Source: Escherichia phage T4_ev151
Length of the DNA: 64,000 bases
Direction: 5' to 3' (one strand)
Sequence record: LR597660
Shown here one piece after another: positions 10,276 through 61,898 of the stretch. Position 1 is the stretch's first letter, and the number at the start of each line of letters is the position of its first letter. A program made the position numbers and the translations under genes. Under the pieces are notes generated by a model that was not told the origin of the DNA, ran no database searches, and worked only from the letters and a program-made list of their open reading frames with translations.

Positions 10276-10901
10276 TATAGTAACTCAAAGAACTCTTTGA
10301 GGCCTCTTATTACGTGAGCATGGGTTTTTCCACACTCTGGACACTTAATTGGAACAGCCAAATAAACGGTAGGTTTTAAAAGCATATCTTTTATAGCTAC
10401 AATATCTGACTCTGTGATGATAGAATATAAATCTTCTAGTTCCTTTTCATTTAAGTCTTCAACTGGAATGCTTTCCCCGTTAGCATGAATCGTTTCTATG
10501 CATGATACTATCATGTGGGCTATATTTTTATCATCAAAAATTTTAGGGTATCGGAATTTAATTTTAATGTCACCCAGTGTATACCAGAGGTCTTCTGGTG
10601 CATCTATTTGTGTATGTAATAGATTTATATGGGTTGGTATTTCAGTTCCACAGGTGCACTTCCAGGAGTTTTCGTGATTAACTTCACCGAGAGAATGTGC
10701 CCATAAATGAATCAACAATAGTTCTGATTCTTGGCGGTTTAAATCTTTTGCATTTGTGCAGTCTTTGATTAGCTTTTTAACAATTACTTCTACGGAACCA
10801 TTATTTTTGGCAGTAATAAGTTCTAGATATTCTTTAAGCGTGAATGCGCGACAATTGATTATTTTAGAACCAACTCTCACATCAAATTTGTATTCATACA
10901 T
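10275..10901 (-). CDS. 26: baseplate hub protein gp26
   Basis: 208 aa; ATG with AGGAG SD; divergent from gene 51. Confidence 0.82.
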
Positions 10902-17191: not shown

Positions 17192-17195
17192 CAAT

Positions 17196-17219
17196 GGGGA
17201 CCTTTCGGTCCCCATATTT
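17196..17219. terminator. stem-loop terminator between convergent genes 54 and the alt-downstream ORF
   Basis: GGGGACC-TTTC-GGTCCCC followed by ATATTTTTATTT. Confidence 0.7.
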
Positions 17220-17510
17220 TTATTTACGGAATGAAATGAAAGCAGAAACTGAAGCAACTAAACTGTCTTCAATATAAACTTCAATTTTTACCGGAGCTTC
17301 TGACTCAAATTTACCTGTTACTACACCCTGAAAAATACTTTCAGTTTGTTCTGGCTTTGAAAAATTTTCAGAAGGAAAAATTCCGAACTTTTTATCTGTT
17401 CCAAAAATTTTAATAAATTCATCGTAAACTGCTTCATTAAAAGCATTATCAGCAGGAATAACGCCTTCAACTACAAGTTCTTGACCCAAAAAGCGCAAAG
17501 AAGATTTCAT
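17220..17510 (-). CDS. hypothetical protein (T4 alt.-3 position)
   Basis: 96 aa; ATG verified; preceded by GAGGA SD supplied by the 54-bp repeat. Confidence 0.65.
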   Translation of the reverse strand: MKSSLRFLGQELVVEGVIPADNAFNEAVYDEFIKIFGTDKKFGIFPSENFSKPEQTESIFQGVVTGKFESEAPVKIEVYIEDSLVASVSAFISFRK

Positions 17511-17517
17511 TTTGTGT

Positions 17518-17571
17518 TCCTCATGTTATGTCAGTAAGACTACTATAACACAACACGAGGGACTTGTAAAC
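17518..17571 (-). promoter_or_regulatory. 54-bp repeat copy A: early promoter (GTTTAC, 18 nt, TGnTATAGT) plus leader and SD
   Basis: Identical to 31151-31204; - strand reads GTTTAC-AAGTCCCTCGTGTTGTGT-TATAGT...GAGGA; the downstream gene ATG is 7 nt past the repeat. Confidence 0.6.
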
Positions 17572-17746
17572 TACATTTTGAACTTTTTAGTACGCGTAAT
17601 AGGCATGCGTCGATTTTATACTGTTTCATTGTTTGAAGAGCAGTATCAAAAACAGCATTAATGACACCAATTGGATTTCCACCCAAGTTTTTAAGCTTAA
17701 CTAATGATAGTTTCTCATTAACACCTATCATTACGATATGCATCAT
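17543..17746 (-). CDS. Alt N-terminal paralogue, distal fragment (T4 alt.-2 position)
   Basis: 67 aa MMHIVMIGVNEKLSLVKLKNLGGNPIGVINAVFDTALQTMKQYKIDACLLRVLKS... aligns with Alt residues ~63-125 (MMHIVPFTLTAKGSIAKLKGLGPSPINYINSVFTVAMQTMRQYKIDACMLRILKS); start overlaps the upstream ORF stop (ATGA). Confidence 0.6.
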   Translation of the reverse strand: MMHIVMIGVNEKLSLVKLKNLGGNPIGVINAVFDTALQTMKQYKIDACLLRVLKSSKCSLQVPRVVL

Positions 17747-17928
17747 TTTGTCGCCTGGTTTAACGTTTTATCTGTATCACCGCCAGAGGTGTATGTACAA
17801 AATCTAAATCCAGGAAGCACGCTTTCTTCGCCGGCTTGAATAGCAAAAATTTGTGGTATTTTATGCTTAGGATTTAAGTTAACAACCGGCGCCGAAGCGC
17901 CGTCAAATAATTCTGTAATAAGTTCCAT
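17743..17928 (-). CDS. Alt N-terminal paralogue, proximal fragment (T4 alt.-1 position)
   Basis: 61 aa MELITELFDGASAPVVNLNPKHKIPQIFAIQAGEESVLPGFRFCTYTSGGDTDK... aligns with Alt residues 1-60. Confidence 0.6.
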   Translation of the reverse strand: MELITELFDGASAPVVNLNPKHKIPQIFAIQAGEESVLPGFRFCTYTSGGDTDKTLNQATK

Positions 17929-20042: not shown

Positions 20043-20050
20043 TATTTATA
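20043..20050 (-). promoter_or_regulatory. late promoter TATAAATA (- strand) upstream of alt
   Basis: TATTTATA on + strand, 23 nt upstream of the alt ATG; SD GAGAGGA. Confidence 0.55.
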
Positions 20051-24430: not shown

Positions 24431-24763
24431 TTATTTTACTACTTTCCAATGTTGCATGTCAAGTTTACCAACTTTTTTCATCTTCTCAATTAAGCGTTCT
24501 GCACGTTGGCGAGCTGTAACATAATGCCATTCGCCTAATTCATTTTGTTCAATTTTTCCAACGATTACTGTATTCAATTCATAAATCCAACCAGTAAAGA
24601 AATTATGAACTTGAATTGTAAAGGTGAAATCTGTTCCCATACCTTCTGTTGTTTCTACTTCAATAATATCACCTTCAACTGCCATTAAGAACCACATAGT
24701 TTCATTATATTTACCATTGAAGCATTTAGTTTTAACTGTAGCGTTCAGATTAATCGTTTTCAT
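24431..24763 (-). CDS. hypothetical protein
   Basis: 110 aa; ATG with AGGAGAA SD. Confidence 0.6.
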   Translation of the reverse strand: MKTINLNATVKTKCFNGKYNETMWFLMAVEGDIIEVETTEGMGTDFTFTIQVHNFFTGWIYELNTVIVGKIEQNELGEWHYVTARQRAERLIEKMKKVGKLDMQHWKVVK

Positions 24764-24873
24764 TTTATTCTCCTTTGTTTGTGTAAGATAATACTATCAC
24801 AAAGGAGCTATACTGTAAACAACTTTGTGCAATCTTTGGAAAATAAAAAAGGACTCCCGAAGGAGTCCTCAAC

Positions 24874-25050
24874 TTATGCTTTCTGCTTACCAAAACGAGA
24901 AGCATCATCTCGAAGAACCGCACGTGCTCGGCGCATGATCTTCTCAACAGTTTGATTGATACGAGAGTTCGACCCACGCTTGTAACCAGCGCGTTTAGAA
25001 TCACCAACTTTCTTTTCAACTGCTTTCTTTGCTTTAGCTTGTTTTGCCAT
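24874..25050 (-). CDS. small basic protein (T4 30.9 position)
   Basis: ATG at 25050 gives 58 aa MAKQAKAKKAVEKKVGDSKRAGYKRGSNSRINQTVEKIMRRARAVLRDDASRFGKQKA; the upstream extension in the track lacks an ATG. Confidence 0.5.
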   Translation of the reverse strand: MAKQAKAKKAVEKKVGDSKRAGYKRGSNSRINQTVEKIMRRARAVLRDDASRFGKQKA

Positions 25051-27824: not shown

Positions 27825-27885
27825 TTTGTTTTCCTCATTTATTTGGTAGAGCTATAATATCACAACTCTACCGTAAAGTAAACCA

Positions 27886-30299: not shown

Positions 30300-30649
30300 T
30301 TAGAAAGGTCCTGGATGTCTTCTGCGAACTTGTTGAAGGAGTTGTTGATTTGTTTTTCAACCAATCCTGGCTTATGAGCCACCACATCCGCCTTCTTTGC
30401 GTCTTTGCGCAGTTTTTCATTTTCACGCTCAATAGCAGCAATTGCCTCACGATTTTTATTATTCATCGCGTCAATATAATTATACTGAATTCGCAAATTA
30501 TTTAATGCTAAGGCGTTTTCATTGGCCGTTTTTGTAATTTCTACAACAGACGTTTCTAATCTTTCAATTTTATTTTTTAAAATTAAAGAAGTTCCGCCCA
30601 ATGCAATTACAATTAATAGCAAGCCTGTTGTCGTATTACTTAATTGCAT
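30296..30649 (-). CDS. putative i-spanin (N-terminal TM helix plus coiled coil)
   Basis: 117 aa; hydrophobic N-terminus TGLLLIVIALGGTSLIL followed by a charged helical region. Confidence 0.6.
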   Translation of the reverse strand: MQLSNTTTGLLLIVIALGGTSLILKNKIERLETSVVEITKTANENALALNNLRIQYNYIDAMNNKNREAIAAIERENEKLRKDAKKADVVAHKPGLVEKQINNSFNKFAEDIQDLSK

Positions 30650-31146
30650 AAAGTTTTAATAACCTCTATAATATCGTCTTGAGAAAGACCGTTAATTAAA
30701 ATATGATGTTCAGCCGGAGATTTAGAAATTTTAAAGCACGCCGCAACATCTTCTGCCATATCCGATGCGCTACGATTTGGATTACTAATTCCAAGACGAT
30801 GCTTTCCTGTCAAAGGATTAACGATGATATAGCATTTGCAGCTATTGATATGAACATTAGGTTGAGTCTGATTAATAAACACTTCACAATCATACTTAGC
30901 GAGTTGATTTTCTAAAAAGACTTTCATCTCCTCAACCGCATCAGGAAGCATATCACGGGCTTGCTCAAGACGACGATTTCGATATTCTTTAATGGTCGTT
31001 TTCCGCTTGACTTGCTTAGCTAAATCTTTCTTAAGATCGGTGATATATCCAACTCGACGATTTCCTTTGAATACAGAAATCCCATCTGTAGTATCACCGT
31101 ATGCTTCAACGACCATTTCAGTAGTAATAAGCTGCAAATCCATCAT
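30640..31146 (-). CDS. alc: Alc (host transcription unfoldase/terminator) candidate
   Basis: 168 aa ORF immediately downstream of rnlA as in T4; assignment by position and length only. Confidence 0.7.
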   Translation of the reverse strand: MMDLQLITTEMVVEAYGDTTDGISVFKGNRRVGYITDLKKDLAKQVKRKTTIKEYRNRRLEQARDMLPDAVEEMKVFLENQLAKYDCEVFINQTQPNVHINSCKCYIIVNPLTGKHRLGISNPNRSASDMAEDVAACFKISKSPAEHHILINGLSQDDIIEVIKTLCN

Positions 31147-31150
31147 AAAG

Positions 31151-31204
31151 TCCTCATGTTATGTCAGTAAGACTACTATAACACAACACGAGGGACTTGT
31201 AAAC
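31151..31204 (-). promoter_or_regulatory. 54-bp repeat copy B: early promoter plus leader and SD upstream of alc
   Basis: 100% identical to 17518-17571; alc ATG is 5 nt beyond the repeat. Confidence 0.6.
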
Positions 31205-31207
31205 AGC

Positions 31208-32795
<1,588 letters not shown>

Positions 32796-61204: not shown

Positions 61205-61318
61205 TCACATAAATCCAAAGTAAACGTTTAATACATCAATCATTAAAACGATTGGGAATATACTCAAAACTATTAGTATTATAACTACATTCCATATAGC
61301 TTTAACAATCTTTTTCAT
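61205..61318 (-). CDS. 37-aa membrane micro-protein
   Basis: ATG at 61318 preceded by GGAGGA; MKKIVKAIWNVVIILIVLSIFPIVLMIDVLNVYFGFM; the longer track ORF (to 61453) would run through a promoter. Confidence 0.45.
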   Translation of the reverse strand: MKKIVKAIWNVVIILIVLSIFPIVLMIDVLNVYFGFM

Positions 61319-61346
61319 TTTGTGTTCCTCCGTAGTTGATAGGGTA

Positions 61347-61376
61347 ATAGTACCACGGAGGAACAGTCTTGTAAAC
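61347..61376 (-). promoter_or_regulatory. early promoter (GTTTAC, 18 nt, TGGTACTAT) with inverted repeat reaching the downstream SD
   Basis: - strand GTTTACAAGACTGTTCCTCCGTGGTACTATTAC; 9-bp arms TTCCTCCGT (61324-61332) and ACGGAGGAA (61356-61364). Confidence 0.5.
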
Positions 61377-61825: not shown

Positions 61826-61898
61826 TTTTACTCCTCCGTAGCTGATAGTTGTATAGTACCACAGTCCTTGTGGTATGTAAACCATTTTGTGAAATTTT

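Follow-up and report, generated by a model that had tools for sequence, protein, structure and literature searches.

An exact 54-bp repeat in a T4-like phage carries a candidate early-promoter cassette predicted to mask the Shine-Dalgarno sequences of alc and alt.-3 on read-through RNA

The stretch of Escherichia phage T4_ev151 DNA analyzed here (record LR597660; 64,000 nucleotides, hereafter the window) contains one 54-mer twice, at 17518-17571 (copy A) and 31151-31204 (copy B), with no mismatch between copies that lie 13.6 kb apart. Both are read on the minus strand, copy A standing upstream of alt.-3 and copy B between the stop codon of rnlA and alc. The explanation that we favor, with modest confidence, is that the 54-mer is a cassette that masks the Shine-Dalgarno (SD) sequence and allows translation early only, that it was copied from alc to alt.-3, and that the two copies have been kept alike by gene conversion. 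Such a cassette would unite a strong sigma-70 promoter, a leader of about 25 nt and an SD, and would at the same time be an imperfect 18-bp palindrome. RNA from its own promoter would carry the 3' arm only, leaving the SD free, and Alc and Alt.-3 would be made right after infection. RNA entering from upstream would carry both arms and fold into a hairpin, burying the SD and silencing the gene. For alc, this read-through would be middle-mode and delayed-early transcription via nrdB-denA-rnlA; for alt.-3, it would be late transcription from the alt late promoter. The outcome would be an 'early-only' translational gate, working in the reverse sense to the late-only gates known from T4 e, soc, 49 and I-TevI. 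The design would be ancestral at alc, ectopic recombination would have put the cassette at alt.-3 in the Tequatrovirus ancestor, and the 54-bp copies would have gone on exchanging sequence by gene conversion since that transfer.

The layout of each copy is that of a T4-type early promoter with its leader and SD, and from it we infer promoter activity and a start site. On the minus strand, the cassette reads GTTTAC-AAGTCCCTCGTGTTGTGT-TATAGT-AGTCTTACTGACATAACAT-GAGGA. In copy A, the -35 element GTTTAC occupies 17566-17571, the extended -10 element TGTTATAGT, with TG before the second hexamer, 17542-17550, and the SD GAGGA 17518-17522; the geometry of sigma-70 promoters predicts a start at an A, 7 nt past the -10 element, at 17535. 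The corresponding elements of copy B lie at 31199-31204, 31175-31183 (TGTTATAGT again) and 31151-31155, with a predicted start at 31168. In both copies, GTTTAC and TATAGT are separated by an 18-nt gap ending in TGT, which becomes a spacer of 17 nt if the hexamer is taken as TTTACA. A sigma-70 scan scored the two copies alike, at 10 of 12 matches plus the TG extension. Only such individual scores were used, because the generic scan of the window gave 64 sites and shuffled sequences gave as many (64.5), so that the site count is uninformative. As for A/T-rich, UP-like DNA upstream of the -35 hexamer, copy B has AAAAATTATAAAAAATTTAT at a distance of about 20-40 nt; at copy A there is no more than CTAAAAAGTTCAAAATGTA, a segment that codes for protein in relatives.

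T4 early promoters have been described as a -35 element, TGn and a -10 element (PMC2988021). With these 'uber' promoters (UP/-35/TGn/-10), the cassette shares the GTTTAC -35 element, TGn, a TAnnnT -10 element and downstream genes of the early class (PMC2988021). It differs in that ordinary early promoters in the window have the consensus in common only, their match to the 54-mer staying below 30 of 54 positions, whereas the cassette pair is identical from the -35 element through the SD. In time-resolved omics of T4, alc and alt.-3 both have early RNA and early protein, and rnlA, the gene upstream of alc, has early RNA and late protein (PMC9697503 supplement). The T4 RefSeq record carries no promoter feature at either cassette site, and a mapped 5' end for either cassette was not found in the T4 literature searched. 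The original prediction had read the repeat as an early promoter, leader and SD, with GAGGA a few nucleotides before the ATG of an ORF at 17220-17510 and of alc. The promoter scores at both copies agree with that reading and fit the T4 description; GAGGA lies 7 nt from the ATG in both cases, the ORF being alt.-3, and the alc codon being the second ATG of the gene, which is the start annotated in T4.

The two copies sit in different surroundings, all features being on the minus strand unless stated. The alt.-3 ORF (17220-17510; 96 aa, Pfam DUF5498, annotated in T4/T4T) forms a one-gene unit, bounded by a bidirectional terminator-like hairpin at 17194-17215 in the gap between gene 54 and alt.-3. 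Copy B is placed between two conserved genes, rnlA (31208-32332), whose TAA stop lies 3 nt before the -35 element, and alc, the inhibitor of host transcription (30640-31143 from the second ATG, as in T4 and T4T). Copy A adjoins a variable second copy of alt, kept whole in most relatives and present as the remnants alt.-1 and alt.-2 here and in T4. In the window, these remnants span 17543-17928, and most Tequatroviruses have an intact paralog of 2058 nt; three alt-like genes are present in Dhakavirus WG01. In relatives that have kept the second alt gene whole, the G at the start of the alt.-3 GTTTAC is also part of that gene's TAG stop. The remnant ORF alt.-2 (17543-17746) has its TAG stop within the -10 element of copy A, so that its frame crosses the 5' arm of the hairpin described below, and ribosomes on alt.-2, if it is translated, would melt that hairpin and could couple translation of alt.-3. 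At copy B, the size of the ribosome footprint suggests that the rnlA stop is too far upstream for a terminating ribosome to touch the stem.

Homology between the copies ends exactly at the G of GTTTAC and the A of GAGGA, and the sequence flanking copy A is unrelated to that flanking copy B. The diverged context that had been pointed out for the repeat was found on both flanks, but copy A is not wholly intergenic: its first 29 bp are shared with the 3' end of alt.-2. The leader itself contains an ATG (in CATGAGG) that opens a mini-ORF of 4-5 codons, MRNTK or MRTL (17508-17525 and 31141-31158, minus strand), which lacks a separate SD and ends in a TGA that shares bases with the alt.-3 or alc ATG (ATGA). 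A function is improbable, as some natural variants destroy the mini-ORF: copy A reads ATAAGGA in GBLB0003 and SHFML-26, and copy B of ACG-C40 has a 1-nt insertion. The same insertion changes the SD of the ACG-C40 alc cassette from GAGGA to GAGGGA.

In predicted RNA that starts at or upstream of the -35 element, both copies fold into a hairpin, at 17519-17560 in copy A (18 bp; -23 kcal/mol, z -4.1) and at 31152-31193 in copy B (-24.4 kcal/mol, z -3.6), minus strand. The 18-bp helix pairs repeat positions 12-25 with 40-53 and 28-31 with 36-39; the promoter spacer forms the 5' arm, and the leader with the SD forms the 3' arm. A 7-bp pairing of spacer and SD, from which sequestration of the SD on read-through transcripts had originally been proposed, forms the base of this helix, and the predicted masking is accordingly stronger than had been claimed. 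Folding of read-through against promoter-proximal RNA put the cost of opening GAGGA on read-through RNA at 11.5 kcal/mol for copy A and 7.0 kcal/mol for copy B, and on the gene's own transcript at 0.8-1.9 kcal/mol. The predicted start falls near repeat position 37, in the 3' half of the hairpin, and by sigma-70 geometry the gene's own transcript would for that reason be without the 5' arm. Folding of RNA that starts after the -10 element found no significant structure at either copy. Read-through RNA is hence predicted to bury the SD and the gene's own transcript to leave it free. Rfam covariance models gave a match at neither copy, even at E <= 1.

Read-through RNA across both cassettes is plausible. 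A late-promoter motif, TATAAATA, lies just 5' of alt at 20043-20050 (minus strand), and the terminator scan found no minus-strand terminator-like site between it and copy A; the motif is a likely source of late read-through RNA into alt.-3. For alc, T4 has the middle promoters PnrdB and PI-TevIII upstream (PMC2988021 Table 1), and the same scan found no terminator-like site between rnlA and alc; RNA that passes the rnlA stop would run on into the hairpin of copy B. Upstream of rnlA, at 32370-32400 (minus strand), TGCTTC stands 13 nt before TACTAT and resembles a MotA-dependent middle promoter; this site is absent from the T4 middle-promoter table of PMC2988021.

The predicted behavior of the cassette has a close counterpart in the hairpins of T4 e, soc, 49 and I-TevI (PMC3014915). 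There, too, the SD and/or the AUG is paired in RNA started upstream, and an internal promoter in the DNA of the 5' arm or loop gives a proximal transcript without the inhibitory arm; in both cases translation is controlled in time, for the cassette by prediction. Their promoters, however, are late (TATAAATA, gp55-dependent), and it is early read-through that is silenced, whereas the cassette has a predicted internal immediate-early sigma-70 promoter and would silence middle and late read-through. Because its internal promoter is of this early type and not late, the cassette is not a strict member of that group.

Further evidence on the hairpin comes from other T4-like genera, from which upstream regions of alc were gathered and 23 lineage representatives were folded from the -35 element to the ATG. 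The SD was fully paired with the spacer in 17 of these 23 (-15.6 to -25.4 kcal/mol, z -3.5 to -6.7), among them Karamvirus, Gelderlandvirus, Dhakavirus and a lineage of Klebsiella phages. The arms differ between lineages, being ATCTCCGTTTAGTT/AACTAAACGGAGAT in Gelderlandvirus, ATCCTCATCAG/CTGATGAGGAT in the Klebsiella-phage lineage and TCTCCTCAT/ATGAGGAGA in Dhakavirus, and at least two canonical pair types occur at 16 of the 19 stem positions when these are indexed from the -35 element. In a covariance-model alignment (42 hits, some non-hairpin promoters among them), double-sided changes were counted in 41 cells, compared with 21.2 in shuffles, none of 500 of which reached the observed value; the covariation score was 0.189, against 0.116 in shuffles and at most 0.136 with slid partners. 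RNAalifold on a plain MAFFT alignment across genera had recovered 6 basal pairs only, because the arms were out of register, and it was replaced by the -35-anchored counting and the covariance-model alignment. Among Tequatrovirus copies, pairing is kept in 98.5% of cells, one pair changes from C-G through U-G to U-A, and several G-U pairs change to A-U or G-C. A common variant, 29A, disrupts one apical pair, and the helix statistics inside this genus are weak, as 20 of 500 shuffles score at least as high as the real sequences. SD pairing is missing in the other six lineages, two of which have a hairpin over the -10 element only and four of which, Mosigvirus among them, lack a long hairpin. It follows that alc can do without masking.

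T4-like phages are known to carry promoter-early stem-loop (PeSL) cassettes, in which an A/T-rich region precedes an early promoter whose -35 and -10 elements may have a stem-loop between or over them, followed by an SD and start codon; the T4/PST promoters read TTTACW-N17-TAYWAT (Arbiol et al. 2010, PMC2839356; Comeau et al. 2014, PMC4122927). The cassette fits this broad definition, having an early promoter, a stable stem-loop, an SD and a start codon, being repeated in the genome, and being a proposed or apparent substrate of homologous exchange. It departs from PeSL in that its 18-bp stem is without a G/C-rich tract or T run and that the SD itself makes up its 3' arm. PeSL cassettes lie beside variable ORFs in hyperplastic regions; of the two copies, A has the variable second alt copy as its neighbor, and B has two conserved genes. 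The role put forward for PeSL stem-loops suggests another reading of the hairpin, unlikely in our judgment but to be taken seriously, in which it is mainly a transcriptional insulator, attenuator or 3'-end stabilizer for upstream RNAs (rnlA at copy B; alt and its paralog at copy A), and its overlap with the SD is incidental. In RB49/phi1, a PeSL stem-loop reduced downstream lacZ to a similar extent as did the rrnB T1 terminator (PMC2839356), and in the GenBank record of SA20RB the alt.-3 hairpin is entered as a rho-independent terminator, from a WebGeSTer prediction. The strong -10 hairpins that end before the SD in two alc lineages speak for it as well, as do those that stop short of the SD at about three other early promoters of the window. 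PeSL stem-loops have been interpreted as terminators or attenuators, whereas the terminator scan calls neither cassette hairpin: a G+C-rich hairpin followed directly by a T run is present at neither copy, the tails being AACACAAAATG and CTTTATGATG. Moreover, the 3' arm coincides exactly with the SD region in 17 of 23 lineages, with the anti-SD directly after the -35 element, a placement that a terminator or stabilizer would not need. Insulation and SD masking are not mutually exclusive.

The SD-masking cassette was probably copied from alc to alt.-3, where it would have replaced a generic promoter. The alt.-3 promoter of Dhakavirus WG01, Mosigvirus LF82-5, Marfavirus PhiKpNIH-6 and Karamvirus CkP1 is a generic early one, whose small hairpin stays within the spacer and leaves the SD unpaired; this makes the alc-type cassette at alt.-3 a trait of Tequatrovirus. 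Karamvirus and Dhakavirus have the long hairpin at alc and none at alt.-3, and the alc cassette of Gelderlandvirus is single-copy among the records listed. Homology between the alt.-3 and alc promoters of Mosigvirus was considered and rejected, as their likeness is that of a generic consensus (GTTTACAA..TG.TACTAT..ATCAAC) also present at unrelated promoters of the window.

For signs of exchange after this transfer, both copies were compared in 23 genomes, a sample biased toward divergent records; most pairs came from GenBank phage records, and degenerate-pattern scans of IMG/VR and metagenomes gave 9 loci each. No fixed difference between A and B was found in these genomes. At 8 of the 16 polymorphic sites, the same derived allele occurs at both copies, and seven haplotypes are common to both sites, among them 29A+32A and 32A+34T, which combine two positions each; SA20RB and SH-2 carry the loop variants 32A+34T and 33A at opposite sites. 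The mean distance per 54 bp was 3.04 for A-A and 2.11 for B-B comparisons between genomes, 2.71 for A-B between genomes, and 2.30 for A-B within a genome (permutation p = 0.019). The cassette thus varies by about 4-5% between genomes, and A and B are no more different than orthologues. The missing fixed differences together with the shared alleles and haplotypes indicate gene conversion, and these sequence comparisons point to homogenization of the copies by that route. T4 recombination needs less than 50 bp of homology, according to Singer et al. 1982 as cited in PMC2839356. The copying or gene conversion of a promoter cassette that had been suggested from the exact identity of the repeat in a diverged context is supported by the same shared alleles and by the restriction of the alt.-3 cassette to Tequatrovirus.

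These comparisons also bear on another history, namely a single old duplication whose copies stayed nearly identical through purifying selection on the promoter and ribosome-binding site, with no ongoing exchange. Promoter, leader and SD are all functional sequence, and 38 of the 54 positions are invariant over both copies in the 23 genomes. Furthermore, the overlap of polymorphic sites, with a hypergeometric p of 1.5e-4, is not significant (0.10) if only 24 sites are free to vary, and the shared polymorphisms could in part reflect a small set of mutable, unconstrained sites. Selection of this kind would nevertheless have to leave between-genome variation of 2.1-3.0 differences per 54 bp and yet no fixed difference, place the same two-site haplotypes at both sites and loop variants at opposite sites in two genomes, and make A-B pairs within a genome closer than random A-B pairs. 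We consider this history improbable and prefer continued gene conversion.

Crossing-over between the copies may also occur in replicating DNA, and the deletion or duplication of the intervening block that had been envisaged is possible at the DNA level. Among the genes of the block are 30 and 31, which T4 genetics has established as essential in standard hosts, and the headful and terminal redundancy of T4 would be too small for a duplication of 13.6 kb. Viable recombinants of either kind are not expected for these reasons. In this respect, too, the cassette differs from PeSL, whose recombination has been interpreted as insertion or deletion of nearby ORFans via mini-circles; the present copies stand 13.6 kb apart around essential genes, and conversion is the only exchange between them that the sequences show signs of.

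A role of the palindrome as DNA, in the form of a site bound by a phage or host protein, a cruciform or a recombination hotspot, appears very improbable. The imperfect inverted repeat is centered on the -10 element, and Arbiol et al. speculated that PeSL stem-loops are targets of a DNA-binding recombination protein (PMC2839356). The stems are nevertheless fully different between genera, with complementarity and G-U pairs kept and no common recognition sequence, and G-U pairs are a feature of RNA and not of DNA.

The repeat is a regular part of Tequatrovirus genomes. A blastn search of 50,697 phage records with the 54-mer gave 997 places in 499 records, all Tequatrovirus-like, or about two per genome, and a third copy was absent among the records listed; the two copies are also present in metagenome contigs. 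Within the window, an ungapped scan at a threshold of at least 30 of 54 positions found no third near-copy. In T4 itself, 53 of the 54 positions agree between the copies. The window is a Tequatrovirus mosaic with 95-99% identity to T4 and many relatives, and no record in the collection matches it at >=99% across a stretch of 24 kb. A sequencing or assembly artefact, the objection named beforehand, and a chance match are practically excluded by these 499 independently sequenced genomes with about two copies each, by the metagenome contigs, and by dinucleotide-preserving shuffles, none of 100 of which contained two 54-mer matches.

SD-spacer pairing was found in 4 of the 10 TGn-type early promoters of the window: those of alc and alt.-3, and those at 61376 and 24820. 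The cassettes at these last two positions mean that the design is not unique to alc and alt.-3. At 61316-61376 (minus strand), the pairing forms a 14-bp stem, TGTTCCTCCGTGGT/ACTACGGAGGAACA (-22.4 kcal/mol), and at 24761-24820 (minus strand) a 9-bp stem, CTCCTTTGT/ACAAAGGAG. Three to four further minus-strand promoters (-35 elements at 27883, 24428, 41055 and 45095) have PeSL-like inverted repeats of 7-13 bp over the -10 element that end short of the SD, and those at 61882, 58073 and 41795 (minus strand) have a small hairpin within the spacer only. As a tentative generalization, about which we remain rather doubtful, spacer-borne anti-SDs would form a general, undescribed class of 'early-only' gates in T4-like phages, allowing translation from the gene's own immediate-early transcript only and never from the long middle or late read-through RNAs, which span most of the genome. 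If true, part of the PeSL stem-loops would be translational insulators and not terminators, and the class could explain the shut-off of some T4 early proteins while the coding RNA is still made.

The cassette itself is a variant of two known T4 designs, PeSL and the SD-masking hairpin, and not a new kind of element; its mechanism is predicted from folding. If the gate works, the classic T4 principle seen at e, soc, 49 and I-TevI, by which promoter choice decides whether an mRNA can be translated, would be extended, now in the opposite temporal direction and for immediate-early genes that include the host-shutoff factor Alc, and the stem-loops of early-promoter cassettes would gain a concrete function. 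The alc/alt.-3 pair would be a natural case of a whole regulatory cassette transplanted and afterwards homogenized by conversion in a lytic phage. For phage engineering, the cassette could offer a compact part that combines a strong promoter with built-in insulation from upstream transcription.

Three further observations were made in passing. A weak Rfam match to the Rhizobiales sRNA Atu_C8 at 24835-24918 (minus strand) covers a terminator-like hairpin region; it scores 31 bits, the gathering score being 50, and is most likely due to chance. The translation-initiation region GAGGAACACAAAATG is the same at alt.-3 (17508-17522, minus strand) and at about 61316-61330 (minus strand), where it stands upstream of a small membrane-protein ORF and downstream of the 61376 promoter. 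According to the T4 RefSeq record NC_000866 (extracted locus 10801-10814), the loop of the cd.3 early-promoter hairpin Pe133295 was formerly given as its inverted complement, a discrepancy that goes back either to a fault in older sequencing or to a genuine inversion at this promoter hairpin.
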